This document shows positions 5,216-19,810 of a stretch of DNA of 32,000 nt, piece after piece. The stretch is from Candidatus Hadarchaeales archaeon. GTDB taxonomy: Archaea > Hadarchaeota > Hadarchaeia > Hadarchaeales > Hadarchaeaceae. Below the pieces are notes generated by a model. It made no database searches. It worked only from the letters and a program-made list of their open reading frames with translations, and was not told the origin of the DNA. The position numbers and the translations under genes were made by a program. Position 1 is the first letter of the stretch. Each line of letters begins with the position of its first letter. The DNA lies in contig JAWBCC010000001.1 of NCBI GenBank assembly GCA_038823825.1, positions 210,001 through 242,000 of the forward strand. Direction: 5' to 3'.

Positions 5216-5230
5216 AATTTAAAAAAATTT
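5216..5230 (+). promoter_or_regulatory. Candidate TATA/BRE element for the TIP49 gene (divergent from ala)
   Basis: The A/T run aaaatttaaaaaaattt ends about 15-18 nt upstream of ATG 5245. The spacing is compatible with a leaderless or very short-leader archaeal transcript. Confidence 0.3.
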
Positions 5231-5244
5231 GGGGGCGCTTGTGC

Positions 5245-6606
5245 ATGGAGGAGGGAGCAGTTCCGGTTTCTCTTAAAGAATGGGAACGGGTTGCTGCTCA
5301 CACCCACATAACCGGCCTCGGTCTGGAAGGTCTAAAAGCAAAACCAGTGGCTGCAGGGATGGTCGGTCAGATCAAAGCAAGAGAGGCGGCAGGCTTGGTA
5401 GTTCATTTAGTTCGGAAGGGAAAATTTGCCGGACGCGCCGTTCTCTTAGCCGGACCCCCCGGAACTGGTAAAACAGCTCTGGCGATAGCCATCGCAAAAG
5501 AGTTGGGACGCGATGTTCCGGTGGTCCTTCTCACGGCTTCGGAAATCTACTCCGCTGAAATAAAGAAAACGGAGTTCCTCACGCAAGCTCTGCGGAGGGC
5601 TATAGGTGTTAGGATACGGGAGATGAGAAGAGTTTACGAGGGGAAGGTTGAGGAGCTTTCCATTCGACAGGAGCCACATCCCTACAATCCTTATGTCAAA
5701 ATTCCGGTCGGTGGGACGATAAAGCTTGCCACGCTTGATCATTCTCAAAAACTTTCGATGGATCAAGCTTTTGCGATTTCTCTTATACGAGAAGGGGTGG
5801 AAACAGGCGACGTGATTCAGATAGATGTCGATGGTGGTAGGGTCGTCAAGTTAGGAAAATCGAGAGAAGCCGCGGAAAAAGAGAAAATTGATCTCTCCAG
5901 TGTTCAGGTTGTTGATGTTCCGAGCGGTCCCGTATTGAAGAATAAGGAGTTCGTCTACACGGTAACCCTTCATGATCTAGATCTTGCGCACTCCAGAAGC
6001 AGCATCAGCTTCTTTGGACTTCTTTTTGGTGGCGAGGGTAGAAAGGAGATTTCGGCCGAAACGCGTGCAACAGTAGATGAAACTGTTAAAGAATGGGTGG
6101 AGGAGGGAAAGGCCGAAATACTCCCGGGAGTTGTCTTTATTGACGAATGTTCTATGCTGGACATAGAAACCTTTGCATTTCTCGGTAGGGCAATGGAACA
6201 GGAGCTTGCTCCGATTATCATCTTTGCCACAAACAGGGGACTTACCGTAGTCAGAGGAACAGACTTTAAAGCTCCACATGGCATGCCACTGGATCTTCTG
6301 GACAGGCTTCTGATAATAACCACACAACCGTATACGAGGGAGGAGATTTTGGAAATATTGAAGATAAGAGCTAAAACCGAAAAAATAAATCTCTCGCAGG
6401 AGGCGCTGGAATATCTGGCACAAATCGGTGAGGCAAATTCTCTCAGATATGCGATCCAGCTTCTTGCTCCCGCATCCGAAGTCGCCATAGCCGAAGGCGC
6501 GAAGATCGTTGAGAAGAAACACGTGGAGCATGTAAGGGAACTTTTTGTAGACGTAAGCAGGTCGGTTCAATATTTGCGTGAGCATGAAGAACGTATGCTA
6601 AAGTAG
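5245..6606 (+). CDS. TIP49/RuvB-like AAA+ ATPase (archaeal RuvBL homologue)
   Basis: It is strongly collinear with eukaryotic RUVBL1/2: HTHITGLGLEG, GQIKAREAAGLVV, AGRAVLLAGPPGTGKTALAIAIAKELG (Walker A), EIKKTE.LTQALRRAIGVRI, VYEGKV.EL, VVFIDECSMLDIE (Walker B), IIIFATNRG. I chose ATG 5245 (MEEGAVPVS...). The tracked start at 5083 would overlap the divergent ala gene and adds only low-complexity sequence. Confidence 0.9.
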   Translation: MEEGAVPVSLKEWERVAAHTHITGLGLEGLKAKPVAAGMVGQIKAREAAGLVVHLVRKGKFAGRAVLLAGPPGTGKTALAIAIAKELGRDVPVVLLTASEIYSAEIKKTEFLTQALRRAIGVRIREMRRVYEGKVEELSIRQEPHPYNPYVKIPVGGTIKLATLDHSQKLSMDQAFAISLIREGVETGDVIQIDVDGGRVVKLGKSREAAEKEKIDLSSVQVVDVPSGPVLKNKEFVYTVTLHDLDLAHSRSSISFFGLLFGGEGRKEISAETRATVDETVKEWVEEGKAEILPGVVFIDECSMLDIETFAFLGRAMEQELAPIIIFATNRGLTVVRGTDFKAPHGMPLDLLDRLLIITTQPYTREEILEILKIRAKTEKINLSQEALEYLAQIGEANSLRYAIQLLAPASEVAIAEGAKIVEKKHVEHVRELFVDVSRSVQYLREHEERMLK

Positions 6607-6798: not shown

Positions 6799-7563
6799 TT
6801 ATTGCCTGCTGATTTTCATCAATCTTTTCTTTATGTGCATGTACGCTTCTTTCAGGTTTTCTTTGTTGTCGAATTCCCTCACAATTTTTTCGAGCCTTCT
6901 CGAGCTCATGTGTCTAAGTTTTTTGACTTCCAAAATTAAAAGCGGAGCGGCTCGTACGATGTTGTCTACTATCGTTATGTTTGCAGCTACTGCTGTTCTC
7001 GAGAGAGGATTCAAGTCGACCGCTATTACGCATTTGCCCATTCTTCTCAGAGCTTCCGTTCTGTCTCCGTCTTCAAGTGGAACGAAAACGACGTCCGCCG
7101 AGTAGATTCCTCTTCTATCTACCACCCTTCTCTCACTATGGATTTCGTCAATTTTTGTGAAGTATCTTTTGTCGGTTCCAAAAATTTCTTTAGCTTCATG
7201 GGCCTTCAACCAGTCTGCAATAGCTTTGACTCTTTCGTCGGTTCTGTGGAAGAGATTGATTTCGATCCTTGCACCTGTCTCTTTTGCCAATTTTACAATC
7301 TCGTTTGGCACAAGCGCTGCAACATTTCCGTTTACAGAAATCACGGGTGAACGAGCTAGAAGAAGCATCGCGGCAGCAGCTCTTATGGCTTTCCTAGCGA
7401 AGGGACAGGTTTTTTCACCGAGAAGATAATCGAAAGCTTCTCCGCGTCCGTGAGCGATCAACCCTTCCGGGACGACGATCCCTCTTCTGAAACCCTCGGC
7501 TAATCTCTCCCTTATTTTTAAAGACCAAGCCCGAGGATGTTCTTCTGAAACCCAACTCTCCAC
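6799..7563 (-). CDS. 4-phosphopantoate--beta-alanine ligase (archaeal phosphopantothenate synthetase, COG1701/DUF137)
   Basis: The 254-aa ORF has HPR..SL..RE.L..G, GLIAHGRGEAFDYLLGE, ISVNGN.AAL, VPLEDGDRTEAL and AVDLNPLSRTA, which are characteristic blocks of the archaeal CoA-pathway enzyme. It uses a GTG start at 7563. Confidence 0.85.
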   Translation of the reverse strand: MESWVSEEHPRAWSLKIRERLAEGFRRGIVVPEGLIAHGRGEAFDYLLGEKTCPFARKAIRAAAAMLLLARSPVISVNGNVAALVPNEIVKLAKETGARIEINLFHRTDERVKAIADWLKAHEAKEIFGTDKRYFTKIDEIHSERRVVDRRGIYSADVVFVPLEDGDRTEALRRMGKCVIAVDLNPLSRTAVAANITIVDNIVRAAPLLILEVKKLRHMSSRRLEKIVREFDNKENLKEAYMHIKKRLMKISRQ

Positions 7564-7632
7564 GATTTTTCCTCTTCTCCAAACTCCAAAAAAGCATTTT
7601 TTAAGTCTTGTTGGTGATAATGAAGTGAGAGG

Positions 7633-8289
7633 ATGGAAATAATCTGGCCGGTCTTTGCTCTGATTGTCGCAATAATCGCGGTCGGAGCATCGGCTTATTC
7701 TGGTACTCCGCTTACGATGGGGATTGCTCTTGCGACGTTGCTAGTTGCTGCAGCATCCGTTTATCTTTACATCTCCGCCTATCCTAAAAAGAGGTTCAAG
7801 GAGATACCGCTGGAGGATTTTTCGTGGTGGATGGATGCAGGAGAACCGCTTGCCTCGCTAAAGAGACTTGATCCAAAATCCATGGCAGTCCCGAGCGTTT
7901 TTCTCTCCGATCTCCGTCCCGTTGCTAAAAATGTTGAGCTTCTCTTTCAGAGGATGAGATTGATCGTTTGGAGGAGAGACTTCGCCGATCTACCGAGCGG
8001 GGACGTGATGACGGAGCTGGATACCGTTCGGAGTTTTCTGCGCGTCATGCTTCAAAGAATTGAGAGGAAAATGGTGCTAGAACCCGAAATCACCGGATAT
8101 TTAACCGATCTGTCCAGCCGGATGAAGAAAATCGCTGAGAAACTCTCGGGATATGCACAGACTAAACCGGAAATTCTTCGTCCTTATGTGGACCCGCTTG
8201 CGAGAGCAGCCGATAGACTCGCGAGAGATCTTGAGATAGCAGCCAAAAATTATCAGGAGTTTGCCAAGGTTGCATTTGGGACAGGGTAG
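7633..8289 (+). CDS. Hypothetical membrane protein (two N-terminal TM helices plus a helical cytoplasmic domain)
   Basis: The 218-aa ORF has an ATG preceded by gtgagagg (SD-like). Its N-terminus is IIWPVFALIVAIIAVGA / IALATLLVAAASVYLYI. I recognise no family. It ends 7 nt before the EF-1alpha start. Confidence 0.5.
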   Translation: MEIIWPVFALIVAIIAVGASAYSGTPLTMGIALATLLVAAASVYLYISAYPKKRFKEIPLEDFSWWMDAGEPLASLKRLDPKSMAVPSVFLSDLRPVAKNVELLFQRMRLIVWRRDFADLPSGDVMTELDTVRSFLRVMLQRIERKMVLEPEITGYLTDLSSRMKKIAEKLSGYAQTKPEILRPYVDPLARAADRLARDLEIAAKNYQEFAKVAFGTG

Positions 8290-8295
8290 TCCTCG

Positions 8296-9537
8296 ATGAA
8301 GCCTCACATAAACCTAGTTTTCATAGGTCACGTAGATCACGGAAAATCTACTCTTATAGGTAGAATGCTTGTCGAAACCGGCGTGATTTCTGAGAAGGAA
8401 CTTCAGGAAGAGGCTGGCAGCTTCAAGTTTGCTTGGATAATGGATAGAGAAAAAGAAGAGAGAGAACGCGGCGTGACGATAGACGTGGCTTATCAGAAGT
8501 TTGAAACGTCGAAAAATATAATAACGATAATCGATGCTCCTGGGCACAGAGACTTCATAAAAAACATGATCACAGGGGCAAGTCAGGCTGATGCTGCGGT
8601 TCTTGTGGTCGCTGCCGATGATGGTATTATGCCGCAGACGAAGGAGCATGCCGTGCTGGCTTTCACTCTCGGGGTTGATCAACTCATCATCGCCATAAAC
8701 AAGATGGATTTGGTGAATTTCGATCAGAACGTTTATGAGAAGCTGAAGAGGGACTTGCAGACTCTCCTTTCCAGCATCGGATATAAGCGGGCGGAGGAGT
8801 TTCCCTACATACCGATATCCGCTTTTCACGGGGAAGGAATAACCAAGCATAGCCCACGCATGCCTTGGTATAAAGGCCCAACCTTTGTGGAGGCTCTTGA
8901 GGCTCTTAAGGAACCGCCGAAGCCGGTCGACAAACCCCTCAGGATTCCGATCCAAGATGTCTATTCCATCACGGGTGTCGGGACAGTTCCGATTGGGAGG
9001 GTTGAGACAGGTGTGCTCAAAGTTGGTGATATGGTTGTTTTTGAGCCACCAGGTGTGAAGGGTGAGGTTAGATCGATAGAAATTCATCACCAACCTGTGC
9101 AGCGGGCGCTCCCTGGGGATAACATAGGTTTCAATGTGAGAGGGGTTTCGAAGGAGCAGATTAAAAGAGGAGATGTGGCGGGACATCCTGATAACCCACC
9201 GACTGTGGCTTCCGCGTTTACTGGAAAGGTTGTTGTTCTTTTTTCTCCGCCCGAGATCGCTCCCGGTTTCACACCCACTTTTCACTGTCATGCTGCGCAC
9301 GCGCCCGGGCGGGTTGTTCAGATTTTGCAGAAGATAGACCCGAGGAGTGGTTCGGTTTTGGAGGAGACTCCCAGAGCTCTGCGCAAAGGGGAGGCAGGAA
9401 TAATTCAGGTCCAGCTACTCAAGCCAATCGTTATCGAGAGGGCTTCCGACATTCCGCACATGAGCAGGTTCGCTATAAGACATGGGGGTCAGACATTAGC
9501 CGCTGGGATATGTATTGATCTCGTGCGTGCGAAATGA
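8296..9537 (+). CDS. tuf: Translation elongation factor EF-1alpha (aEF1A) family GTPase, compact 413-aa form
   Basis: It has G1 GHVDHGKST, G2/effector RERGVTID, G3 DAPGHRDF.KNMITGASQAD, G4 NKMD, and domain II/III blocks KPLRIPIQDVYSI.GVGTVP.GRVETG, GDNIGFNVRG, RFAIRHGGQTLAAG. The VVAADDGIMPQTKEH segment is of the short type, as I recall for methanococcal EF-1alpha. Confidence 0.9.
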   Translation: MKPHINLVFIGHVDHGKSTLIGRMLVETGVISEKELQEEAGSFKFAWIMDREKEERERGVTIDVAYQKFETSKNIITIIDAPGHRDFIKNMITGASQADAAVLVVAADDGIMPQTKEHAVLAFTLGVDQLIIAINKMDLVNFDQNVYEKLKRDLQTLLSSIGYKRAEEFPYIPISAFHGEGITKHSPRMPWYKGPTFVEALEALKEPPKPVDKPLRIPIQDVYSITGVGTVPIGRVETGVLKVGDMVVFEPPGVKGEVRSIEIHHQPVQRALPGDNIGFNVRGVSKEQIKRGDVAGHPDNPPTVASAFTGKVVVLFSPPEIAPGFTPTFHCHAAHAPGRVVQILQKIDPRSGSVLEETPRALRKGEAGIIQVQLLKPIVIERASDIPHMSRFAIRHGGQTLAAGICIDLVRAK

Positions 9538-9581
9538 ACTGGAGAAAATTTTATGAGTTTGTGTGGTTAGATAATTTCCGG

Positions 9582-9658
9582 GCGGCAGTAGTCTAGCTTG
9601 GTTAGGACACGAGCCTGCCACGCTCGTGACGCGGGTTCAAATCCCGCCTGCCGCACCA
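9582..9658 (+). tRNA. tRNA-Gly (GCC), CCA encoded
   Basis: The hand fold is GCGGCAG-TA-GTCT-AGCTTGGTTA-GGAC-A-CGAGC-CTGCCAC-GCTCG-TGAC-GCGGG-TTCAAAT-CCCGC-CTGCCGC-A-CCA. Confidence 0.95.
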
Positions 9659-9668
9659 GAAGTTAAAT

Positions 9669-12600
9669 TCACTTTTTGTTGGGTGAAATCCAACACCAGC
9701 AAATCCTCTTAAGTTTGATTTCCTCCTCTTCTGGTGTTAAAGTTCTCTTTTCCTTTAAGAGAGGAGGTATCACCTTCTTTGCTTCCTCCAGTAACCTTTC
9801 CTCCTTCATGGCTCTGTAGAGCTGGTTCACCACCGTTGTCCTATCGCAAACTTCCCTAAAACCTGCGGCCAGTTCTTCTCCCTCATCACCTAAGGCGCTG
9901 AGCTTCTCAAAGATTTCTCTAACCCTCCGACCGCCTAGAGGACCTTGAGTTCGTTGACGAACTTTTTTCCTTTCCAATTCCTTGATGAGTTCCAGTTTGA
10001 CCAGTTTTAAACGTTCCACTAACTTTTCATAATCTATTCTCTCTCCCTTTCCGTTTCCAGGTCTTCTCAAAATCTCTATGACCTTAATGGGTGAAGTTTC
10101 GGTTTGAGGTTTATCGAAATACCTTAACCTCCAGTAAATCTCCTTTCCGTCGGTAAATGCTACGAAAAGGGCTTCCCTCTCCCCCCTCATGAAGGAACCT
10201 ATGCCGCAAGGCAGTTTCTCCAGCCACTCTTTTCCTTTTTCCCTTAGGATTTCCGCTAGAACGTCAGCAGGATCGTTGGTGAACTGCTCCATCTGGGTTT
10301 CGAGGAACCTGAGTGCTTCATGGTCTTCTTTGGAGAGGGCCCTAATCAGCGTAAAGTCCTTGGGGATTGGTTGCTCTCCCAAAACCGAAGCATCAAGCCC
10401 TACGGTACTCCGGATGGCTTCTAACCTCAGATACAACCTTTCCGTCAGACGGAGGAAGCGCTGTAGAGTGTCTTCTTCCGGGAATAGGTTGGTTAAATAC
10501 ACAACAGGATAAGGAGAACCTATCCTGTCCACCCTTCCTGCCCTTTGGATGAGAACCACTGGGTTCCAAGGGAAATCGTAGTTGATCACGTATTGGGCGT
10601 TTTGTAGGTTTTGGCCGGTGCTGAGAACATCGGTGCTGATCATCAGTCCTCCTCTTTTCTTGAATTCTTCGACTCCTTCAGCCTCCCCCATCCTTTTTCC
10701 TTGAGGCCCTATGGCTCCTTCTCCTGTTACTAGGAAGGGGGAGAGGTGTTTGAATCTCTCGTATAAATACCGAGCGGTGTCGGCGTATTGCGTGAAAATG
10801 ATGATGCCGTTATTTCCGGTCAGGTTACGTGAGGTTTCTTCTACCCAAGCTTTAACCTCCTCGAGCTTGGTATCTCTCTCTGGAAGCAGCTTGAGGAGTT
10901 CTTGGATTTTTTCTTTATCTTTCTCATACCCTTGCTGGAACTCTTCGATTTCCGCAGGGGTGAGCCTACATTTCTCCACAAGCTCCGGGAGTTTGAAGAC
11001 TTCCTCAGGTTCCGGAAGCTCTCCTCCTTCTTCTTCTCCAACCAGCGAAAGTACTTCTCCCCTTACTCGCGGGGGAAGGAAGATTCCCTTCTCCTTCGCG
11101 TACTTGACCGCGTTCTCCAAATAATTCTCCATCTTCTCCAAGGACTTTCGGAAGGCCTCCAAGCTGCTCTCGAGCCTCTTCAGTAGGTTTATTCTTACTA
11201 CCGTCTTCACCAGCTCCTTGAGTTTTTCCAGCTTCTCGGAGGCCACAGCTTTCGAGATGATGCTTCCGTCAGGAAGTCTCAGTTCTCCGCTCAGCTTCTC
11301 GACGGAAAAATCGTAGCACTTGAAATCCATGGATTCTAGAATCTCCATTACCTTCTCGGGGTCGAAGGGCAAAGAGTAGTGGATGCTGAGGAGCTTCCTT
11401 TCTGGGAACTTTACCTCCTTTGAAAGTTCTTTGGCGAAATCTCTTGAGATTCTCACCACGAACCTTCGGAGAACCTCGTCCATGTCCACAGGTTTTCCTT
11501 CTAGCCACTCCTTTTGTCTGGCGGTAAAGTATCCTCTCAGGGATCCTCCTTCCAAGGCTGTATCGGGCAAATAAAGACTTAGGAGGGAGTAAAGGTCCAT
11601 CAAGCTCGTGTTGACGGGAGTAGCAGTAAGCAGAACCACATCGGCTCGATTCTTGTTGATTAACTCCGCCAAAGCCCGATAGCGGTTGGTAGACGGATGC
11701 CTGAATTGATGCGCCTCATCCACTATGATTAGACCAAGGGGATTCTCCGGGTCCGAGAATTTTTCAACTGTTCCCTCAGGGTCGCTGGACAGCCTCTCGG
11801 AGTTGATGCTTTCCAGCTGGATGTTCATCTTCCTCATCTCCTCCTTCCAAGTGGTCTCCAGCACACTCTTGGGGGCTATGAGAAGAGTGCGGTCAGGCAT
11901 GGCATCGTGGGCCAACACCAGACCTACCCTAGTTTTGCCCAACCCCGTAGAGTCCGCGACTAAAACGCCTCCCCATTTTTGAAGCTTCAAGCGGGACTCC
12001 AGCACCGAAAGGCGTTGATGAGGATAAAGTTTCTCAAAAGTTTTCTCCTTTTCTTCTATCTGCTCGAGTCCTTCCTTATAGCTCTCGTAGAGAGCTTTGG
12101 CAAGCACCTCCAAGGGGGTCCAGGTGACGGTATAGTTCTTGAGCATGGAGAGGAACTCCTCCTTGAAATCCTTTGCCATCTCCCAGACTTCTTGGAACCA
12201 GTCGAAGAGCTGTTGAACTGCCATCGGATCCGTGTCTACCATGTTGAGCTCACGGTTCTTGACCAGACCGGCATAGGTGAAGTTGCTAGATCCGACCACG
12301 GCCACTCCGTTGGCTTCTTGTTGGCTGGAAATGCCTAGGTAAGCCTTTCCGTGAAAGAAGGGCATCTCCAAAATTCTCACTTCTACTTCTGGGGACTCAA
12401 AATGGGATATGGCTTCCTGGAGAAGCTTGAAATATTCAGGGTTGTCCTCGTTCTCCTCTAGCTCCTTTAAGATCTCGTCTTCCCACCTCATGCTCTCCGT
12501 GGGCTCCTTTCCCAGCAAGAGTTTGAGAGGTTTTCCAACCAAGGTTTCTTTGATGGCACCCCAGCCCCGGATGTTGAAGTAAGCCGTGGCAATCATAATT

Positions 12601-12677
12601 TCGTTAGCCTTCGCCAGCTCCCTTTTCAGGACTTCCGCCAGAACTTCCCTTCTATTATCCACGATTCTAGCAGTCAA
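9669..12677 (-). CDS. PLD/HKD-nuclease domain fused to an SNF2-family (SF2) helicase/translocase, 1002 aa
   Basis: The N-terminal PLD motif is FH109-G-K111-AYLG...VVGSSN132FT (nt 12282-12353, checked codon by codon). The helicase motifs are I ADSTGLGKT (nt 11931-11945 verified), II IIVDEAHQFR (DEAH at 11709-11720 verified), III LLLTATPVNTS, V STDVLSTGQNLQNAQYVINYDFPWNP and VI QRAGRVDRIGS. The start is TTG at 12677, overlapping the upstream stop (TTGA). Confidence 0.85.
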   Translation of the reverse strand: MTARIVDNRREVLAEVLKRELAKANEIMIATAYFNIRGWGAIKETLVGKPLKLLLGKEPTESMRWEDEILKELEENEDNPEYFKLLQEAISHFESPEVEVRILEMPFFHGKAYLGISSQQEANGVAVVGSSNFTYAGLVKNRELNMVDTDPMAVQQLFDWFQEVWEMAKDFKEEFLSMLKNYTVTWTPLEVLAKALYESYKEGLEQIEEKEKTFEKLYPHQRLSVLESRLKLQKWGGVLVADSTGLGKTRVGLVLAHDAMPDRTLLIAPKSVLETTWKEEMRKMNIQLESINSERLSSDPEGTVEKFSDPENPLGLIIVDEAHQFRHPSTNRYRALAELINKNRADVVLLTATPVNTSLMDLYSLLSLYLPDTALEGGSLRGYFTARQKEWLEGKPVDMDEVLRRFVVRISRDFAKELSKEVKFPERKLLSIHYSLPFDPEKVMEILESMDFKCYDFSVEKLSGELRLPDGSIISKAVASEKLEKLKELVKTVVRINLLKRLESSLEAFRKSLEKMENYLENAVKYAKEKGIFLPPRVRGEVLSLVGEEEGGELPEPEEVFKLPELVEKCRLTPAEIEEFQQGYEKDKEKIQELLKLLPERDTKLEEVKAWVEETSRNLTGNNGIIIFTQYADTARYLYERFKHLSPFLVTGEGAIGPQGKRMGEAEGVEEFKKRGGLMISTDVLSTGQNLQNAQYVINYDFPWNPVVLIQRAGRVDRIGSPYPVVYLTNLFPEEDTLQRFLRLTERLYLRLEAIRSTVGLDASVLGEQPIPKDFTLIRALSKEDHEALRFLETQMEQFTNDPADVLAEILREKGKEWLEKLPCGIGSFMRGEREALFVAFTDGKEIYWRLRYFDKPQTETSPIKVIEILRRPGNGKGERIDYEKLVERLKLVKLELIKELERKKVRQRTQGPLGGRRVREIFEKLSALGDEGEELAAGFREVCDRTTVVNQLYRAMKEERLLEEAKKVIPPLLKEKRTLTPEEEEIKLKRICWCWISPNKK

Positions 12678-15600
12678 GTGGCCAACACCTTCCCTGCTTT
12701 TATTAGCCTATCTTCCACCACTTCGAGGAAGGCCTGGTGAAGCTCGTTGAGAAGGGAATCCAGCTCCAGCTTGGGACGTGTGCCGAAAACTGTTTGGACG
12801 GTGAACCAAGAGGGTGGCTTAGAGACTGGCATACTTAAAAGGCTCTCGATTACCGCCTTATCGAGTTCTTTCCTGTCAGTTTGCTTGATTTCCTCCGCAT
12901 ACTTCAACGGTTTTCTTTCCATCAGCTTGTGTGGGTCGAACTTTATCTTCATGTCACTCAGGTCTGGGACAGTTAACTCCTCGTAGTCCTCCACCATTAT
13001 GTCTGTGGCTGCACCTCCACCTCCAAGCCTCCTGCAGTGTAGCTCCACGGTGAGGTAGAAGAGGGTGGAATTCATGTAAATCCAAACGGTCAAGGGATCA
13101 ATTCCCCTGTTACAATACAAAGCATACAACCTATGGTCACACATCACGGGATTCTTGCTGAAGGGTATGTAGATGAGGTCCCTCCAAGACATGGGAAGGA
13201 GGATGTGGGTGGGCTCGAACTCGGGAAGCTCCCACCATCTTTCCCTCGCCTTGCAGGTGGGACGTTTATGGAATCCCTGCGATTCCCCCCATTTGATGTA
13301 CTTCTTGGTGAAGGGTCCGGGGTCCGAGGTGTAGAGACACAGCGTTTTGACGGAAGGAATCAAGAAGCTCCTTATCTCCTTTGGGCTCCTCACGAGGGGC
13401 TTCGTGTCTTTACGGTCTATTACGAATCTCTCTCCGGCCTCATTTTCTATGTATATCAGCCCCTTTTCCTCCAACTCCTTCCGGTTCTTTGCTGGGATAT
13501 CCCTGAATTTCTGGGGATTCGCGAGCCTGTCGGCTTCATAGAGGTGGCTCACATCCTTCATGTAGAAGAACTCATTTGCTCCCGTTTTAATCCCAAATTT
13601 TATTTCAACGAATTCCTTCAGTTTGTGAGTCAACCTCGGTAAGAAAACTTCCTCGAAAATGCGGGGGGAGCGTAAATAGTACCACTTTCCTGGTTTCAGT
13701 TCTGACCTCCTAAAGGACCTATAGTTTCTAATAGTGTTACCCGTATAGGAGTCCAAGTAGATGAAATCGACACTTTCCTCCCCCGTTTCCCGCTGGAGGA
13801 TGGTTATAACGGTGTTTATGTCAGCCTGAAAGCTCCTCTTCCTTTGCCCGTATACCGCCCTGAGGTGTGGCAGGAGCTCTCGTTGTAAAGTTCTTCCGTA
13901 GCCCGACTCCAACCACTTATCAGAAGAGATGACGGCCACCACCCCGCCCTTTCTGACCAATTGAATGGCTCTTAACATAAAGTAGGCATAGAGATCCGAG
14001 GTCCTGTCCAAACCGTAAATCCCAACATACAAATTCTTCTTTCCCTCCGGTATCTGCTCCTGCCTGACATAGGGCGGGTTCATTACCACGATATCCACCT
14101 TGGAAGGATAGAGGCTTTCGATGGTAAGACCCTCGCGTACCCCCATCTTCTCACTGATTTTCCTCTTCAGTTCGCTCATTTTCTTTCTGAGCAGTTTTTT
14201 CCTTTCCTCTGTGTGCTCTCTGAGATACTCCGCGTTGAGTCTCCTAAATTCATTTATTAATTCCGAAAGCTTTGTCTCCATAAACTCGTCCAGCTTTGGA
14301 CTCTGGGAAGGAGGATATAGGGAATCTTCGATTTCCATGAGGTTCAAGTCTAGGTTTGGAAGAGGCTCAGGTTCCCTCTGGTCTATGACCAAGGAAAGCC
14401 AGAGCCTCAGCTTTGCTATTTCCACTGCCTCAGGCTCTATGTCGAAGCCGCAGAGGTTAGGGAGAATCCTTTTCTTGTATTCCTCTGGGTCCCCTCTCCA
14501 TCCCACAGTAGCCTCGGCTTCGTGGATGAGCTGGATCAGGGTCTGCATCATAATTACCAAAAAACCACCGGACCCTACCGCGGGATCCATTACCCGCAGG
14601 GAGAGGAGCTTTTCTCTGAACTCCCTGACTTTCTTTTCCGATTTTTCTCTCCTAAGTTCATCTAAGAATTCCTCAAGTCCATCCACCAGCTCCAGTCTCC
14701 CATTTCTTTCCACCACTTTATCTTTGAGCCCCAGACAGGCCGCAATGGCTTTCCTGCACATGAACCCTATCTCGTTGGGAGGGGTGTAGAAGGTTCCTTT
14801 CTCTTTTCTTTCCTTTTCCGAAAGGAGGTTCTCAAGCACGGTTCCCAGCAGGAGGGGATCTATGCATACCTCCATCTCCATAGGGGAAGACTCATCCACG
14901 GTGAAATTGTATCTGTTGAAAAACTCCCTAGCCTCCAAAAAGATGGGCTCAAGCTTCTTTTCCGTCTTATCCTCGAGTTCCGGTGTGAAGTATTCTTCTC
15001 GCTCGAAAAGCGATCCATTGAGCAAAGGCATTCCACCTTCTCCTTTGGCGAGTTCCTCGTAACACAGGCGGTTGAAGTCCCGTACATTTTTTATCCTATC
15101 GACGTATTTCCTGTCTCCTTTCAACCATCCCTTCCTTTGAAGGAAGTACAGGAACATGAGTCTGCCCAAGAACCTCTGAGCATAGGAGGATGCTCTTTCC
15201 CCCATACTCGCTTTGAGGACCGAAACCGTTTTCTCGTAGAGTTCACGGTATCCCTCGAAGAACTCATCCCTGACTTTTTCATACGGAAAGAAGCTCGTAT
15301 CATAGGCATCTTTCAGTTTCTCCTTTCCTGGAAACCTGAGAGATTCCAGAACCTCTATGTCGGTGCGATAAAGTCTCTCGTGAAGCCAAAGGATTTTTAC
15401 TTCCCCTCCAGTGCCTTTTCCCGGAACGATCACAGCGTAACTATCTCTCCCGTCCGTGAAGAAGAGGAGGGGCCTGATGAGTCTTTTGCTTTTCCAGTTT
15501 CTCGCCACTTGAGAGCGGACACTCCTCGGAGGAAGTTTGGAGAATTGAAGGATGATCCCCTCCACGTAATCGTCCTTGTAAATCCTCAATACGTCTACAG

Positions 15601-15730
15601 GACTAACGTGGGCAGGAATAACCCCAGCATCCTTCAGTGTTTCTGTGTCCAGCTTCTCTTCTCGAAGCGGATAACCCAGTTTTTGCAGAGTCTCCATCCA
15701 AAAGGACACGTCGAAAGCTCTTGCTTCCAT
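12674..15730 (-). CDS. Gamma-class N6-adenine DNA methyltransferase with C-terminal TaqI-like target-recognition domain (Eco57I/type IIG-like architecture), 1018 aa
   Basis: It has the helical N-domain block RFLGRLMFLYFLQRKGWL, motif X GTFYTPP, motif I VMDPAVGSGGFL (nt 14561-14587) and motif IV VVMNPPY (NPPY at 14069-14080, verified). The TRD block is IKFGIKTGANEFFYM (about nt 13565-13594). A possible PD-(D/E)xK-like motif sits at D93/D96...E110-V-K112. Confidence 0.9.
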   Translation of the reverse strand: MEARAFDVSFWMETLQKLGYPLREEKLDTETLKDAGVIPAHVSPVDVLRIYKDDYVEGIILQFSKLPPRSVRSQVARNWKSKRLIRPLLFFTDGRDSYAVIVPGKGTGGEVKILWLHERLYRTDIEVLESLRFPGKEKLKDAYDTSFFPYEKVRDEFFEGYRELYEKTVSVLKASMGERASSYAQRFLGRLMFLYFLQRKGWLKGDRKYVDRIKNVRDFNRLCYEELAKGEGGMPLLNGSLFEREEYFTPELEDKTEKKLEPIFLEAREFFNRYNFTVDESSPMEMEVCIDPLLLGTVLENLLSEKERKEKGTFYTPPNEIGFMCRKAIAACLGLKDKVVERNGRLELVDGLEEFLDELRREKSEKKVREFREKLLSLRVMDPAVGSGGFLVIMMQTLIQLIHEAEATVGWRGDPEEYKKRILPNLCGFDIEPEAVEIAKLRLWLSLVIDQREPEPLPNLDLNLMEIEDSLYPPSQSPKLDEFMETKLSELINEFRRLNAEYLREHTEERKKLLRKKMSELKRKISEKMGVREGLTIESLYPSKVDIVVMNPPYVRQEQIPEGKKNLYVGIYGLDRTSDLYAYFMLRAIQLVRKGGVVAVISSDKWLESGYGRTLQRELLPHLRAVYGQRKRSFQADINTVITILQRETGEESVDFIYLDSYTGNTIRNYRSFRRSELKPGKWYYLRSPRIFEEVFLPRLTHKLKEFVEIKFGIKTGANEFFYMKDVSHLYEADRLANPQKFRDIPAKNRKELEEKGLIYIENEAGERFVIDRKDTKPLVRSPKEIRSFLIPSVKTLCLYTSDPGPFTKKYIKWGESQGFHKRPTCKARERWWELPEFEPTHILLPMSWRDLIYIPFSKNPVMCDHRLYALYCNRGIDPLTVWIYMNSTLFYLTVELHCRRLGGGGAATDIMVEDYEELTVPDLSDMKIKFDPHKLMERKPLKYAEEIKQTDRKELDKAVIESLLSMPVSKPPSWFTVQTVFGTRPKLELDSLLNELHQAFLEVVEDRLIKAGKVLAT

Positions 15731-15740
15731 TGATATTCAC

Positions 15741-15770
15741 TATTAATTTCCCTTAGTTTAAAAAATTTCT
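15741..15770 (-). promoter_or_regulatory. Candidate TATA elements for the methyltransferase-helicase operon
   Basis: The minus strand reads agaaattttttaaactaagggaaattaatagtgaatatcaATG. The TTTTTTAAAC element lies 27-36 nt upstream of the ATG, which suggests a leaderless or short-leader transcript. Confidence 0.3.
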
Positions 15771-15877
15771 TCGATGTTCCTCTGGCTTTGAGAAAAAACA
15801 GCTGATGCTTTGTGTTTACACTATGAAAAAACTAAAATTCACATCACGCCCAGGGGAAGCACAAATTATGGCATGAA

Positions 15878-15905
15878 GCTTTAAAAAGCAAAGGATTAAA
15901 AGCAT
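15878..15905 (+). promoter_or_regulatory. Candidate TATA element(s) for psmA and the exosome superoperon
   Basis: The sequence gctttaaaaagcaaaggattaaaagc lies about 50-70 nt upstream of ATG 15951. An SD-like aggagagg sits at 15935-15942. Confidence 0.3.
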
Positions 15906-15950
15906 CGTTCTCTTACGATTATTGAGTCGAAGAAAGGAGAGGAATGGAAA

Positions 15951-16691
15951 ATGGTATTTGCACCACCAGGCGCGGGTTATGACCGGGCGATAACCGTCTT
16001 CAGCCCGGATGGCAAACTTTATCAGGTCCAGTACGCTCAAGAAGCGGTAAAACGGGGACTCACAGCTCTCGGGATGAAAGTCAAGGATGGCGTTGTCCTC
16101 GCAGCTGAAAAGATGGTCCGCAGCAAACTCGTTGAGGAGACTTCGATAGAGAAAATTTTCCAGATAGACGAGCACATAGGGGCTGCAGTCTCCGGCCTCA
16201 TCGCTGACGGTCGAGTCCTAATAGATCAAGCAAGACTTGAGGCACAGATAAACAGACTGCGATATGACGAGCCGATAACGGTCTACGCATTGGCCAAGAG
16301 GATCGGAGATATCCAGCAACTTTACACTCAGCACGGTGGCGTTCGTCCGTTCGGGGTGAGAATTCTGATAGGAGGAGTGGATAATGGAACGCCCAGCCTC
16401 TACGAGACTGATCCAAGCGGAGTTGTAGCTGCTTACAAATGTCAGGCAATAGGTAGGGAATCGCAAACCGTGGTTAACTTCTTCGAGGAAAAATACGACC
16501 CGAACCTCGGTTTAGAAGATGCGATAAAGCTTGCGGTCGAGGCCCTATCGAAAGTTGTCGAGCCGCCCTTAACTTCCGACAAGTTAGAAATGGCTGTGAT
16601 TCCAATGGAGACCGCAAAGTTCCGAAAGCTCACGCAGACAGAGATCTCAAAGTATACGAAGCCATACGAAAAAGCCAGACCGAAGGAGTAG
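15951..16691 (+). CDS. psmA: Proteasome subunit alpha
   Basis: It has the N-terminal signature [28 protein letters not shown], is 246 aa long, and sits at the head of the exosome superoperon. Confidence 0.95.
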
Positions 16692-16703
16692 AAGGAGTCT
16701 CCT

Positions 16704-17399
16704 ATGGTCAAGTTAGAGGATGCCGTGATAGCGAGATTTTCAAGTCACGGCATGAACTTCGAAATTTTGGTCGACCCAAACTTGGCTGTTAGTCTGCGAG
16801 AGGGCAAGCAGGTAGACATGAGAGCGATGCTCGCCATTGACAAGGTTTTCAAAGATGCCCGGAAGGGAGAGTCGGCGTCGGAAGAAAGTCTTTTAAAGGT
16901 TTTCGGTACGTCCGACGTTTTCCGGGTTGCCGAACAAATCGTGAAAAACGGTGAAATTCAGCTTACGACCGAGCAGCGCAGAAAGATGAGGGAGGAAAAG
17001 GTGAAGCAAATCGTGACTATCCTTTCAAGAAGGGCGATAAATCCACAGACTGGAACTCCTCATCCTCCGGCAAGGATAGAAGCTGCCCTGAAGGAGGCAA
17101 AGGTTCAAATCGACGAGTTCAAGAGTGCTGAAGAGCAGATTCCGAAGATAGTCAAGGCCTTGCTTCCAATTCTACCGTTGAAATTTGAAATCAGGAAAAT
17201 TGCAGTTAAAATTCCGCCAGCCTACGTCGGAAAAGCTATCCACGTTGTGAGAAAAATGGGCACCATCAAGCAGGAGGAGTGGCTTCAAGATGGTTCTTGG
17301 GTGGTTTTAATGGAGATCCCGGCTGCTGTGGAAGCCGAAGTCTACGAAAAGTTGAACGAGCTAACGAAAGGAGAGGTTGAAACGAAGGTGATAGAATGA
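16704..17399 (+). CDS. SBDS-family ribosome maturation protein (Sdo1 homologue)
   Basis: The 231-aa ORF begins with a typical SBDS N-terminus, [21 protein letters not shown], followed by [19 protein letters not shown]. It occupies the conserved position between psmA and rrp4. Confidence 0.88.
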
Positions 17400-18094
17400 T
17401 TCTCGTTCAGAACAGGGAGCTTGTGATTCCAGGTCAGAAAATCGCGGAAGGAAAGTACAAGATCAAGGAAGGAGTTTACAAGGAAGGTGACGAGATATTT
17501 GCTGCAGTGGTTGGTCTAGCGGAAATCAGCGATGAAACGATTAAGGTGATCCCGCTAGAAGGGAGATATATTCCCAAGGAAGGCGATCTGGTCATAGGAG
17601 TTGTGATAGACGTTCACGCTTGGGGGTGGGTTGTGGACATAAACTCACCCTATACTGGAAATCTGCTGTTTTCCGATTACTTAGAAAGAAAGGTGGATCC
17701 GGTCCGGGAAAATCCACACAAACATCTCACACTTGGTGATGTTGTTGCTCTGCAGGTCAAAGAAGTTAACGAAAGAAAGTACGTTTTACTTGAGGGCGGC
17801 AAAGCTGGTCTCGGGAGGTTGCGAGGAGGCAGAATGGTAGAGATCTCTCCCATGAAAATCCCACGCGTGAGAGGAAAAAAGGGTTCAATGCTCAAGGTTC
17901 TTCAGGATATCGGTGGATGTCGACTTTTGGTCGGACAGAATGGAAGAATAGTTATATGGGCGAAAACACCTGAGCGCACGGCTGTAATAGTTGAGGCTCT
18001 GAAGAGAATTGAGAGGGAAGCGCACATACCAGGTCTGACAGACCGAATACGTTTAATGCTGGAAGGGAGGAATGTAAAGGATGCAGAAACCTGA
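17396..18094 (+). CDS. rrp4: Exosome complex RNA-binding subunit Rrp4 (N-terminal, S1 and KH domains)
   Basis: It has VIPGQ.IAEG, the S1 region [10 protein letters not shown]....W.VDI and the KH region GKKGSM...L......C.L.VGQNG.I. It overlaps the SBDS stop by 4 nt. Confidence 0.9.
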
Positions 18095-18797
18095 AAAGCT
18101 GATAATTGATGGCAGAAGGCTAGATGGTCGGGCACCGGACGAGATGAGACCACTGAAAATAATTGCTGGACCCTTGCAGAGGGCTGACGGATCAGCCTAT
18201 GTAGAGCTTGGAAAAAACAAGGTTCTTGCGGCGGTTTACGGACCTCGTGAGATGCATCCGAAGCATGAAGCAGAGCCCGACCAGTGCATCCTGCGCTGTA
18301 GATATTCCATGGCACCGTTCTCTGTTGAGGAGAGGAAGAAACCAGGACCAGACAGAAGATCGATTGAGATTTCCAAGGTCATAAGAGAAGCCCTTGAACC
18401 GGTTCTTTTCTTGGAATTATACCCAAGAGCTGTCATAGACGTGTTTATCGAGGTGCTTCAAGCCGATGCTGGGACAAGAACAGCCGGGATAAACGCCGCG
18501 GCAGTTGCCCTAGCCGACGCCGGGATTCCAATGAAGGATCTTGTCTCCGCGATTGCCGTGGGAAAGGTCGATGGAACAGTGGTTTTGGATCTTAACAAAG
18601 AGGAAGATCAATTTGGAGAGACAGACATGCCAGTCGCGATGATAGTCAGGAGAAAGGCGATCACGCTTCTCCAGATGGACGGACATTTCACGGAGGAAGA
18701 GTTTAAGCAAGCTCTGGATTTTGCTTTCAAAGGGTGCGAGCAGGTATTTGAGGCTCAGAGACGTGCCTTGAAGGAGAAATATGTGGTGAAGGTGTGA
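18081..18797 (+). CDS. rrp41: Exosome complex exonuclease Rrp41 (RNase PH fold, catalytic subunit)
   Basis: It has [44 protein letters not shown] and [22 protein letters not shown]. Confidence 0.9.
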
Positions 18798-18800
18798 GAA

Positions 18801-19568: not shown

Positions 19569-19569
19569 A

Positions 19570-19800: not shown

Positions 19801-19810
19801 AAGAGATTGT

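Follow-up and report, generated by a model that had tools for sequence, protein, structure and literature searches.

An accessory cassette of two genes among housekeeping genes

The window, the whole 32-kb stretch of DNA that we analysed, carries two long ORFs (1018 and 1002 aa) on the minus strand. They overlap at a TTGA (12674-12677) in which the stop of an upstream methyltransferase (MTase) gene runs into the start of a helicase gene. Both ORFs were recovered where a first-pass annotation had placed them, and each motif that it quoted occurs exactly once in its protein. These ORFs and motifs are real: they stand far above chance, have Pfam matches, and for each protein the full-length homologues, which share 45-60% identity, number in the hundreds. 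The features of the locus are the following.

9582..9658, plus strand: tRNA-Gly(GCC), found with ARAGORN; the cassette has its left border at the 3' end of this tRNA gene
9660..15883, no strand assigned: whole accessory cassette, 6224 bp, delimited by blastn against the empty-site locus L037
12674..15730, minus strand: gene 1, gamma-class N6-adenine DNA methyltransferase with a C-terminal target recognition domain (TRD), Eco57I/MmeI/PglX-like; 1018 aa, ATG start
9669..12677, minus strand: gene 2, fusion of an HKD/PLD nuclease and a SNF2-family ATPase; 1002 aa, TTG start
12686..12694, minus strand: SD-like GGGAAGGTG, 8 nt upstream of the helicase TTG, within the end of the MTase ORF
15756..15765, minus strand: TATA-like TTTTTTAAAC, 26-35 nt upstream of the MTase ATG, within the inserted segment

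The host is a hot-spring archaeon. The neighbours in the window include eIF2-gamma, tRNA-Gly, proteasome alpha, SBDS, exosome genes, and TIP49, and the pair is, as the first reading had it, the sole accessory element among them. A strain with 99.2-99.5% identical flanks lacks precisely the MTase and the helicase and has an unrelated 123 bp in their place (by blastn, L037 1-2468 corresponds to window 7192-9659, and L037 2592-13396 to window 15884-26688). The two-gene cassette is horizontally mobile, being present or absent between near-identical strains. Neither terminal direct or inverted repeats nor an integrase was found at its ends.

The TTG start of the helicase is supported because homologues beginning with MTKIIDN align with the (M)TARIVDN of the window. 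Of the 14 loci that carry both genes in full, 12 have the two ORFs overlapping or abutting, and the SD-like site together with the TTGA overlap suggests that MTase and helicase are translationally coupled. The TATA-like element could possibly be the cassette's own promoter, giving a near-leaderless mRNA.

The methyltransferase and its N-terminal domain

The ORF of gene 1 matches the Pfam families Eco57I (7e-26), MmeI_Mtase, and N6_Mtase. Its parts, all on the minus strand, are listed below.

15326..15730: N-terminal alpha/beta domain, aa 1-135, from AF2 secondary structure
14831..15325: helical domain, aa 136-300, N-terminal to the catalytic domain (AF2 helices at 150-271)
13781..14830: catalytic domain, aa 301-650, with motifs X, I, and IV
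14777-14797: motif X, GTFYTPP, aa 312-318
14561-14587: motif I, DPAVGSGGF, aa 382-390
14069-14080: motif IV, NPPY, aa 551-554
13031..13780: TRD, aa 651-900, with a weak M_Eco57I_C match
13565-13597: TaqI-like loop FGIKTGANEFF in the TRD, aa 712-722

Among 120 sequences, Y315, T316, G386, G388, and N551-P-P are invariant, and Y554 is kept in 117. The AF2 model (pLDDT 85) retrieves CamA, BrxX/PglX, MmeI (TMq 0.45), M.BseCI, BpuSI, and DrdV from the PDB with Foldseek. The helical domain occupies the same position as the helical spacer of MmeI and the Type IIG enzymes.

The N-terminal domain has no Pfam match even at E<=10 and is confined to the tight family, the distant MTases aligning only from about aa 148 on. 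In the AF2 model, its order of helices and strands is like that of a REase-like fold, with D93 and E110-x-K112, so that the window protein has a complete D-E-K triad at 93/110/112. The three positions read D-E-K in 14 of the 120 homologues, D-E-R in 41, and N-E-K in 41, and the D/N93 and K/R112 exchanges are anticorrelated (n=120). The domain may be a nuclease that has degenerated, or it may serve for docking, and the triad of the window protein means that this subunit may have nuclease activity.

The nuclease-helicase

The ORF of gene 2 matches PLDc_2 (4e-11), SNF2-rel_dom (5e-15), and Helicase_C (1e-15). Its features (minus strand where coordinates are given) are these.

12168..12677: single HKD/PLD nuclease domain, aa 1-170, with PLDc_2 and RE_NgoFVII matches
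12345-12353: H109-x-K111 (HGK, aa 109-111), the sole HxK of the helicase protein
12282-12293: GSSN of the PLD domain, aa 129-132
12243-12257: NRELN of the PLD domain
10398..12032: SNF2 ATPase core, aa 216-760, with SNF2-rel_dom, ResIII, and Helicase_C matches
11931-11945: GLGKT, lobe 1, aa 245-249
11709-11720: DEAH, lobe 1, aa 320-323
11616-11627: TATP, lobe 1, aa 351-354
aa 421-600: helical insertion in the SNF2 core
10560-10583: NYDFPWNP, lobe 2, aa 699-706
10518-10547: QRAGRVDRIG, lobe 2, aa 711-720
9672..10397: C-terminal alpha+beta domain, aa 761-1002, from AF2 secondary structure
9690-9707: RICWCW, the invariant R991-x-C-W-C995 strand that ends the C-terminal domain

In 119 sequences, the PLD residues H109, K111, G129, S130, S131, E143, and N145 are invariant, and N132 and N141 are kept in 118; K248, D320, Q711, R712, R715, and R718 of the helicase core are likewise invariant among the homologues. 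The AF2 model (pLDDT 79) is closest in the PDB to SauUSI, followed by RapA, SNF2 remodellers, and ZorD (Foldseek), and by sequence the SNF2 core matches the Sulfolobus Rad54-like ATPase, ISWI, and RapA. SauUSI, an ATP-dependent REase that combines PLD and SF2 helicase, is the closest solved architecture to this subunit. The C-terminal domain has no Pfam match. Broader HKD-SNF2 relatives align with the helicase only up to about aa 850-870, and the last ~130 aa are confined to the tight family; this domain may dock on the MTase or bind DNA.

The two genes travel and evolve together

Across about 120 homologues, all listed motifs of both proteins are near-invariant. As predicted, the helicase has an MTase gene next to it in 64/64 related loci with enough flank, and every member of the tight helicase family with that much flank has one. 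In 63 of these loci the MTase gene is the immediate upstream neighbour, in the same orientation (16/16 in genomes, 47/48 in metagenomes); the exception, a metagenome locus, has it divergent yet adjacent. The pairwise identities of MTases and helicases are correlated (r=0.69, a value reached in 0 of 2000 Mantel permutations), and no conserved third gene was found across 105 loci. Strict pairing, ORF overlap, co-evolution, invariant motifs, and presence/absence between strains bear out the proposal of a self-contained two-gene module.

At about 50% identity, the pair is spread patchily over archaeal phyla and some bacteria, a distribution that resembles horizontal transfer. Distant relatives (~27-35% identity) show this pairing too, as do 4/4 informative samples of the wider family. 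Such distant pairs lie on plasmids of Deinococcus, Thermococcus, and Planktothrix, with cargo genes between the two genes; on pHV4 of H. volcanii, where the genes overlap; on further plasmids, from cyanobacteria and Halorussus; and on Lactococcus pJM1F, with a TRD shufflon. Viral contigs and phage genomes yielded no member of the family. Three loci (L004, L005, and L012) combine a frameshifted MTase with an intact helicase ORF; this would fit a nuclease that does no harm when its methylase is missing, or alternatively MAG assembly errors.

The suggested enrichment in defence islands held only in part: some loci have defence-type add-ons (OLD ATPase, a second PLD nuclease, EVE, DUF365, DUF4145), but a defence-island context is occasional only. 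Housekeeping genes surround the cassette in the window as well as at loci L007 and L022, and at the latter two RNA polymerase genes lie beside it.

The TRD is a hot spot of differences between strains. Between the window and locus L032, 59 of the ~80 differing cassette alignment columns fall within 12500-14000, and 23 of 28 amino-acid changes fall, in patches, at aa 709-927, with the TRD loop reading FGIKTG in the window versus RGFTSG in L032. The helicases of the two strains are almost identical. This patchiness fits what would be expected of a specificity determinant.

Comparison with named systems

DISARM, BREX, DUF499-centred BR/Hma, Type III, and Type ISP were considered in turn, and the cassette belongs to none of them. 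In agreement with the first-pass annotation, DrmA/DrmB, PglZ/BrxC, and a separate S subunit are absent from the window locus; they are absent from 105 related loci too, and DUF499 is found in neither. Neither protein matches any named system of PADLOC or NCBIfam over the full length or with a score above the cut-off. There are partial matches to DrmD, DrmMI, HmaA, and BrxHII models, and the scores are low (DrmD 126 bits against a curated cut-off of 610; PglX 71 against 500). The best PADLOC models are Type IIG REase-MTases for the MTase and, for the helicase, the 'HKD+Snf2' cluster, which occurs beside type III CRISPR loci (PMC6546367); NCBIfam NF042964 matches the helicase weakly.

A candidate two-subunit restriction-modification system

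We consider that the cassette is probably a self-contained, mobile, two-subunit ATP-dependent restriction-modification system. The MTase would read a short DNA site through its own TRD and methylate it as a mark of self. Like those of MmeI, PglX, DnmA, and the Type ISP enzymes, this site is probably asymmetric, with methylation of one strand; among homologous MTases, DnmA methylates GACGAG (PMC7261158) and RM.Aco12261II the likewise asymmetric CCRGAG (as cited in PMC5867850). The second subunit, a SNF2-family dsDNA translocase with one N-terminal HKD (PLD-type) half active site, would be made through translationally coupled expression, and it probably docks on the MTase, with contacts that may involve the family-specific N-terminal domain of the MTase and the C-terminal domain of the helicase. 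At an unmethylated site, the complex would begin to translocate, driven by ATP. Two nuclease domains would be required for cutting, because a single HKD motif is half a PLD catalytic centre, and these could be brought together by dimerisation or by the meeting of two translocating complexes. Such a two-site rule would leave hemimethylated daughter DNA protected. Complex formation, methylase-dependent cutting, the two-site rule, and a role against viruses or plasmids are what we infer from the comparative evidence.

The two genes might instead be independent systems that travel together, gene 1 as a complete Type IIG/IIL enzyme and gene 2 as a SauUSI/Hna-like nuclease. The Type IIG best models, the filing of distant homologues as Type IIG in REBASE (PMC5867850), and the existence of single-protein PLD-helicase defence proteins (the weak NF042964 match and SauUSI as best structural match) speak for this reading, but it leaves the universal adjacency, ORF overlap, correlated evolution, and constant presence of an MTase beside tight-family helicases unexpected, and we regard it as unlikely. 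In this reading, gene 1 would cut by an N-terminal PD-(D/E)xK domain of its own: D93, E110, and K112 have the order and spacing of a REase triad, but few homologues keep it, positions 93 and 112 vary in opposition, and the PADLOC Type IIG profile aligns from aa 153, leaving the nuclease part uncovered. A role outside defence, with regulatory m6A marks of the kind proposed for DnmA of B. subtilis and SNF2 remodelling or repair, seems quite unlikely. SNF2 proteins are classically remodellers, the cassette's neighbours are core information-processing genes in the window and RNA polymerase genes at L007 and L022, and in the analogous DnmA-YeeB-YeeC trio of B. subtilis, DnmA influences promoter activity and plasmid transformation is not restricted (PMC7261158). 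Against this, presence or absence between 99%-identical strains and a patchy, transfer-like spread are at odds with such a role, and the invariant PLD motif, TRD variation, and defence-type add-ons better suit a restriction system.

We give very little weight to a reduced or satellite module of class 1 DISARM or DUF499-centred BR/Hma, with DrmA/DrmB or the DUF499 ATPase elsewhere in the genome. The partial DrmD, DrmMI, HmaA, and BrxHII matches point that way, and Type-2 BR (Hma-like) systems have as their hallmark effector a Swi2/Snf2 helicase with an HKD at its N-terminus (PMC12839542). Yet the matches lie far under the curated cut-offs, the MTase is Eco57I/MmeI-like whereas BR systems have a DUF1156/COG1743-type MTase, genes for DUF499, DUF3780, and DUF1998 are absent from the 32-kb window and do not recur in the 105 loci, and the cassette moves as exactly two genes. 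Least probable of all is a Type IV-like reading, in which the helicase C-terminus reads foreign base modifications, as a modification-dependent nuclease like SauUSI would, and the methylase does something else, for instance blocks a rival system or serves as an antitoxin. In its favour, SauUSI ranks first among the structural matches, and PUA-like readers (EVE, DUF365) adjoin the pair at several loci; however, these are occasional separate genes and not core components, Pfam and PDB sequence searches of the helicase C-terminus found neither SRA nor EVE nor any other reader domain, and an obligate sequence-specific MTase partner is the signature of modification-protected, not modification-dependent, restriction.

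The novelty first claimed for the cassette was somewhat overstated. Besides the Type-2 BR effector, nuclease-less MmeI-like methylases with a flanking helicase were described by Morgan in 2009 (PMC2731913), and Milman in 2023 lists a bacterial 'Type II RM CDS with adjacent PLD + SNF helicase CDS' (PMC9881135). The methylase HVO_A0079 of Haloferax volcanii, a putative "Type IIG" in REBASE, for which methylation was not detected in that organism (PMC5867850), belongs to the distant haloarchaeal homologue pair, and its partner gene is interrupted by an IS element in H. volcanii. Earlier papers mention the layout in passing, and the family itself looks unnamed and widespread; relatives of the cassette are now catalogued as "Type IIG" enzymes.

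Two overlapping genes encode a methyltransferase and a nuclease-helicase fusion

The two long ORFs that the first-pass annotation had read from the sequence are borne out, both on the minus strand:

12674..15730, minus strand: gene 1, N6-adenine methyltransferase (MTase) with TRD, 1018 aa, ATG start
9669..12677, minus strand: gene 2, PLD-SNF2 protein (the helicase), 1002 aa, TTG start

The stop codon of gene 1 and the start of gene 2 share a TTGA overlap, read directly in the sequence, and the two chains are separate ORFs, with a stop codon followed by a restart. An SD-like GGGAAGGTG lies 8 nt 5' of the helicase TTG. This start is credible because the homologues of the helicase begin with MTKIIDN, which aligns to (M)TARIVDN in the window.

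The motifs listed in the first-pass annotation are each present once, at the expected place, in both proteins. Gene 1 matches the Pfam models Eco57I, MmeI_Mtase (4.8e-11), N6_Mtase and, weakly, M_Eco57I_C, and it carries the N6-adenine MTase motifs X, I and IV and the TRD on a single chain. The order X-I-IV followed by a C-terminal TRD places it in the gamma class. Gene 2 matches PLDc_2 (aa 25-165), then SNF2-rel_dom (5e-15)/ResIII and Helicase_C, and has only one HxK motif. Its motor is of the SNF2 type, with motifs I, II, III and VI and, in the predicted model, a helical insertion (aa 421-600) between the RecA lobes; the best matches among PDB sequences are the Sulfolobus Rad54-like ATPase and ISWI. 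Pfam revealed no DNA recognition domain in this subunit, and searches of Pfam and of PDB sequences revealed no modified-base reader domain. At E<=10, the Pfam searches of the MTase N-terminus, the helical spacer, the helicase insertion and the helicase C-terminus returned nothing meaningful.

We aligned 119 helicase and 120 MTase sequences. In the PLD domain, H109, K111, G129-S-S, E143 and N145 are invariant, and N132 and N141 are each kept in 118 of the 119 sequences. In the motor, K248 (Walker A), D320 and the motif VI residues Q711, R712, R715 and R718 are invariant, whereas E321 and H323 of the DEAH box are found in 118/119. The MTases show the same pattern, with Y315/T316, G386/G388 and N551-P-P invariant and Y554 present in 117 sequences. 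The near-invariance of these catalytic motifs argues that both enzymes are maintained as active. The helicases also share an invariant R-x-C-W-C at aa 991-995, in the final beta strand (RICWCW, window 9690-9707; 119 homologues).

Predicted structures and family-specific ends

The predicted structure of the MTase (pLDDT 85) matches CamA, BrxX/PglX, MmeI (the best overall TM), M.BseCI, BpuSI and DrdV. The model of the helicase (pLDDT 79) has SauUSI (PDB 7CLG) as its top Foldseek match, followed by RapA, eukaryotic SNF2 remodellers and ZorD, and the structural alignment with RapA is full-length.

For the first 135 residues of the MTase, the model predicts an alpha/beta domain with confidence. The Type IIG profiles match gene 1 only from aa 153 onwards, and aa 1-153 have no Pfam match. 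At the level of predicted secondary structure, the domain is reminiscent of a PD-(D/E)xK core, both in the order of its elements (helix 69-83, strands 86-92, 97-101 and 111-117, helix 122-129) and in where D93 and E110-x-K112 fall. Positions 93, 110 and 112 read D-E-R in 41 of the 120 sequences, N-E-K in 41, D-E-K in 14 and N-E-R in 9. Because positions 93 and 112 vary in an anticorrelated manner across the family, a conserved nuclease function of the domain appears unlikely, although the window protein itself retains D-E-K. Two regions, the N-terminal domain of the MTase and the C-terminal ~130 residues of the helicase, are restricted to the tight clade of close homologues and are hence candidates for a mutual docking surface.

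The two genes form a conserved pair

Relatives in genome contigs were gathered with an alignment-based query. Full-length homologues of each protein number in the hundreds, at 45-60% identity, and their hosts are Hadarchaeota, Aigarchaeota/Nitrososphaerota, Bathyarchaeia, Thermoplasmatota, Marsarchaeota, Archaeoglobaceae and a few thermophilic bacteria. Where at least ~3 kb of sequence precedes the helicase gene, its immediate upstream neighbour on the same strand is an MTase homologue, in 16/16 genome loci and 47/48 metagenome loci; in the single exception, the MTase gene is adjacent and divergent. The conserved MTase neighbour, which the first-pass annotation had proposed as a check, is hence found in all 64 loci with enough flank. 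Both genes are complete in 14 loci, and in 12 of these the two ORFs abut or overlap. The pairwise identities of the two proteins are correlated over 14 loci (Pearson 0.69), with none of 2000 Mantel permutations giving a value as high.

The clustering of flanking ORFs in 28 and then in 105 loci revealed no third conserved gene. We rejected DUF499, DUF3780, DrmAB and an S subunit as a third component because the clustering gave only antisense shadow ORFs and lineage-specific neighbours. The lack of a separate specificity subunit, first noted in the window, extends to these loci, since none recurs among the 28 or the 105.

Some genomes depart from a single intact pair. Candidatus Caldarchaeum subterraneum and one Nitrososphaerota MAG have two paralogous copies each; the copies are on a contig of 1,680,938 bp and in loci L005 and L018. 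In L004, L005 and L012 the MTase ORF is frameshifted or interrupted, without N runs, and the helicase ORF is intact; in Thermogymnomonas acidicola JCM 13583 (L026) both genes are fragmented. These interruptions may correspond to real decay or to MAG assembly errors. The split MTase of L034 (GCA_038843305.1) was dropped as a frameshift, since the scaffold has an N run at 7290-7363.

Additional genes are found in individual loci, namely an OLD ATPase, an extra PLD nuclease, EVE, DUF365 and DUF4145. An OLD-family ABC ATPase with a TOPRIM domain lies between methylase and helicase in L010 (7659-10001), after a 94-aa ORF that duplicates the helicase N-terminus. In one subclade, a stand-alone PLDc_2 protein of 344-380 aa lies between the genes of the pair (L066 3467-4609, L072 6908-7942, L096 6819-7934) and consists of a second HKD nuclease and an uncharacterised C-terminal half. 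Small PUA-like proteins recurrently adjoin the pair (L068 3058-3714, L069 881-1537, L048 11081-11920, L083, L084, L093, L062 7519-7998, L030 10050-10508); several of these loci encode EVE-like proteins, whereas the protein of L062 and that of the Thermococcus profundus plasmid belong to DUF365, and they recall the EVE/ASCH association published for DUF499 systems. A DUF4145 (HEPN-like) protein is encoded 3' of the helicase in Tardisphaera (L011 13012-14103), and in the complete genome CP117708.1 (L012 9971-14062), where the methylase is frameshifted, DUF4145 is fused in frame to the helicase C-terminus. The search of 144 flanking ORFs with PADLOC gave only a few defence matches (OLD/AriA/GajA, HerA, AbiL). 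We do not claim the enrichment in defence islands that the first-pass annotation had proposed to test; a defence context is occasional.

The cassette is polymorphic among closely related strains

The neighbours of the cassette encode housekeeping functions: D-Tyr-tRNA deacylase, TIP49, phosphopantothenate synthetase, eIF2-gamma, proteasome alpha, SBDS, Rrp4/Rrp41/Rrp42, Pcc1, prefoldin, Tyw1 and SepRS. Elsewhere in the window, we observed:

5083-6606, plus strand: TIP49/RuvB-like ATPase (archaeal)
22993-24456, plus strand: DUF5667 protein
26162-27745, plus strand: SepRS
29170-31920, minus strand: 916-aa protein with Ig-like repeats (Big_13, Big_6)

The DUF5667 protein has 466, 472, 483 and 487 aa in near-identical strains, a spread that suggests a variable, possibly repeat-containing region.

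The cassette is 100% identical to a contig of the MAG GCA_038822855.1, and the nearest named relative of the helicase is in a Hadesarchaea MAG (86% identity). An empty-site strain was traced via its identical proteasome alpha subunit. In this strain (GCA_038854855.1, locus L037), the flanks are 99.2-99.5% identical to those of the window and the cassette is absent: window positions 9660-15883 (6224 bp) correspond to 123 unrelated bp (L037 2469-2591). Hence, the unit gained or lost is exactly the two genes and their short flanks. One of these flanks includes a TATA-like box 26-35 nt 5' of the MTase ATG. The left border of the cassette is the last base of a tRNA-Gly(GCC) gene (window 9582-9658, plus strand). 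Site-specific integration targeted to the tRNA is unsupported despite this position at its 3' end, because we found neither att-like direct repeats nor terminal inverted repeats at the borders. There is also no integrase at the cassette, and neither repeats nor an integrase explain how it moved. Scans of viral contigs and phage genomes found no members of the family, and we therefore do not claim carriage by viruses.

The co-occurring strain variants L032 and L038 have a helicase gene almost identical to that of the window and a different TRD allele. Of the ~80 alignment columns of the cassette that differ from the window, 59 are at window 12500-14000, and 23 of the 28 amino-acid changes in the MTase are at aa 709-927, in patches, some of them at aa 841-927. 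The conserved TaqI-like loop lies in one of the patches and reads FGIKTG in the window and RGFTSG in the variants; the RGFTSG allele is in JGI 3300008000. The changes in the TRD are patchy and mix synonymous and non-synonymous differences, which suggests that TRD segments were swapped between alleles. This variation is the behaviour expected of a determinant of sequence specificity.

Comparison with known systems

The first-pass annotation had held that none of the known layouts it listed equals the pair, and the searches agree: the PADLOC and NCBIfam matches to DrmD, DrmMI, PglX, BrxHII, HmaA, DpdE and ZorD are partial and below the cut-offs. Among the PADLOC models, "C3a139 HKD+Snf2" fits the helicase best; this cluster was found beside type III CRISPR-cas loci (Shah et al. 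2018, PMC6546367). Of the architectures described so far, that of the Type-2 BR system comes closest, composed of a DUF499 ATPase, a DUF1156/COG1743 MTase, an HKD-Swi2/Snf2 helicase and DUF3780 (Rakesh & Krishnan 2026, PMC12839542), a layout noted earlier by Bell et al. (2020, PMC7641849). In both Type-2 BR/Hma and the pair, an HKD endonuclease precedes a Swi2/Snf2 helicase on the same chain, and self is predicted to be protected by an N6-adenine MTase; both occur in archaea, with occasional EVE/ASCH-type readers. Yet what they have in common is the effector layout only. The window and 105 related loci lack both the DUF499 AAA+ ATPase and the DUF3780 protein that form the BR core, and the BR MTase is of the DUF1156/COG1743 type with an inserted TRD, whereas gene 1 is Eco57I/MmeI-like with a C-terminal TRD and has no DUF1156 match in Pfam. 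The HmaA model of PADLOC covers only the core of the helicase (aa 314-768).

Class 1 DISARM has the same set of activities, i.e., an Eco57I-like adenine MTase, an SNF2 ATPase and a PLD nuclease. However, its PLD is encoded by a separate gene (DrmC), whereas here it is fused to the SNF2 N-terminus. As the first-pass annotation had noted, DrmA and DrmB (DUF1998) are absent from the 32-kb window; neither recurs in the 105 loci. The DISARM_DrmD model (NCBIfam) scores 126 bits against a cut-off of 610, and the DrmMI match (PADLOC, 4.8e-14) spans only aa 365-464. The BREX core was likewise found missing, with no PglZ phosphatase or BrxC ATPase in the window and 71 bits for BREX_1_MTaseX (NCBIfam) against a cut-off of 500.

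The MTase has the layout of MmeI and other Type IIL/IIG enzymes: N-terminal domain, helical spacer, gamma-class MTase and TRD. It differs from them in that the PD-ExK triad, though present in the window protein, is not conserved across the homologues and in its low sequence similarity, MmeI_Mtase being the only MmeI Pfam model that matches. Type IIG/IIL enzymes act alone, whereas here a PLD-SNF2 gene adjoins the MTase in 64/64 loci with enough flank. Morgan et al. (2009, PMC2731913) described nuclease-less MmeI homologues (YeeA) that have as neighbours a helicase and another conserved protein, in which they saw GIY-YIG motifs, and mentioned others with only a helicase beside them; they proposed that nuclease-less homologues cut via the neighbouring helicase and nuclease. 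YeeA/DnmA makes m6A at GACGAG, and no restriction of transformation was found (Nye et al. 2020, PMC7261158). The YeeA(DnmA)-YeeB-YeeC system has a separate helicase and a separate conserved protein, in contrast to the single PLD-SNF2 fusion here. Two bacterial loci were listed as "Type II RM CDS with adjacent PLD + SNF helicase CDS", Cj0031-like (Milman et al. 2023, PMC9881135). No such system is described in a 2025 review of R-M biology, which mentions that PglX homologues were formerly Type IIG in REBASE.

In Type III and Type ISP systems, as here, the MTase/TRD gives the specificity and is accompanied by an SF2 ATPase-nuclease. By analogy, the site is probably asymmetric and methylated on one strand, and a two-site or collision rule is plausible. 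The parts are different: the Type III Mod is of the beta class with an internal TRD, its Res is a non-SNF2 helicase with a C-terminal PD-ExK, and Type ISP carries an Mrr-like nuclease, helicase, MTase and TRD on one polypeptide. The pair is instead divided over two chains and uses an SNF2 motor with a PLD nuclease. That restriction might depend on the MTase for site recognition, as it does on Mod in Type III, is hinted at indirectly by the missing recognition domain in the PLD-SNF2 subunit and by the frameshifted MTase beside an intact helicase in L004, L005 and L012. SauUSI also joins an N-terminal single-HKD PLD nuclease to an SF2 ATPase, but it has a C-terminal SRA reader and cuts modified DNA without an MTase partner; here, the MTase is adjacent and no reader was found. 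Finally, in CglI/NgoAVII a PLD R-protein works with a helicase-like H/N-protein (SF2 ATPase), but the nuclease subunit carries a B3-like DNA recognition domain and the MTase is separate and conventional.

The claim of novelty made in the first-pass annotation thus stands in part. The layout is a new, unnamed variant among ATP-dependent R-M-like systems that was never defined as a system; it is not entirely unseen, since earlier papers had glimpsed it.

A wider family of HKD-SNF2 and methyltransferase pairs

The exhaustive search for the helicase resulted in 1,167 clusters (50% identity) at E<=1e-30. Only ~5 of them are in the tight clade and include the C-terminal ~130 residues; the others align over aa ~5-870, i.e., the HKD and SNF2 regions. 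The distant relatives that we sampled show the same partnership with a large Eco57I-like MTase.

Table. Arrangement of the pair in sampled distant relatives.
L125: MTase followed by helicase
L126: MTase followed by helicase, with a small ORF in between
L124 and L127: reverse order, with the helicase first
Plasmids of Deinococcus, Thermococcus profundus and Planktothrix: both genes, separated by cargo (DUF262, AbiEii or other)
Halorubrum: helicase homologue after a protein of 1375 aa whose similarity to MTases is only weak
Halorussus and several cyanobacteria: distant pair
Lactococcus cremoris pJM1F (L128 1737-10230): helicase and N6-methylase, then an inverted TaqI-like TRD fragment and an Mpi-family invertase
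Haloferax volcanii pHV4 (L122 5436-12440): HVO_A0079, with an 11-nt overlap into a PLD-domain gene that an IS4 transposase truncates

The arrangement in L. cremoris is likely a TRD shufflon for specificity switching. HVO_A0079 is a putative Type IIG enzyme in REBASE for which methylation was not detected (PMC5867850), and the literature on this H. volcanii locus does not mention its partner gene. The unnamed bacterial and haloarchaeal pairs have the same two-component design, with both proteins ~26-35% identical to those of the window. They differ in lacking the MTase N-terminal and helicase C-terminal domains of the tight clade, and cargo genes or TRD shufflons are often inserted. So far, these pairs have been mentioned only in passing or given a Type IIG annotation, and were never defined.

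A proposed two-subunit ATP-dependent restriction-modification enzyme

The best-supported reading of these comparisons is that the pair constitutes a two-subunit ATP-dependent R-M enzyme. The comparative evidence favours the interpretation of the first-pass annotation, in which methylation marks self and a translocase with a PLD nuclease is the effector. In the mechanism that we infer, step by step, the MTase-TRD would recognise and methylate the site, and the SNF2 motor would translocate along double-stranded DNA. The single-HKD nucleases Nuc, BfiI and SauUSI form their active site by dimerisation; here, two single-HKD domains would similarly pair into one PLD active site. Such pairing, by collision or by dimerisation, would impose a two-site rule. 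Type III, Type ISP and MmeI enzymes combine one-strand methylation of asymmetric sites with a two-site rule, which is what this mode of methylation would need to protect newly replicated DNA.

The databases file the methylases of this class as Type IIG or as orphans. We advance a broader proposal tentatively, giving it somewhat less credence than its negation: that the cassette is a compact thermostable archetype of an unrecognised and very large class of two-subunit ATP-dependent R-M systems (Eco57I/MmeI-like MTase-TRD and PLD-SNF2), in which modification and restriction both require the methylase and in which the HKD half-site makes cleavage depend on the meeting of two SNF2 translocases, a mechanism unlike those of Types I, III and ISP that would merit its own R-M type. 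If so, many archaeal and bacterial "Type IIG" or orphan methylases would be the specificity subunits of a motor-nuclease system, and the inventories of R-M and defence systems, as well as methylome assignments, would need to be re-read. The activities of the multi-gene DISARM (DrmMI-type methylase, SNF2 ATPase, PLD nuclease) and a BREX-like, PglX-type methylase would be reduced to two thermostable proteins, and the pair would thereby be a tractable model for how a one-strand methylase of asymmetric sites signals foreign DNA to a motor and a nuclease. The presence/absence polymorphism and the TRD alleles within one hot-spring population would then provide a natural experiment, in uncultured archaea, on the gain of defence and the switching of specificity.
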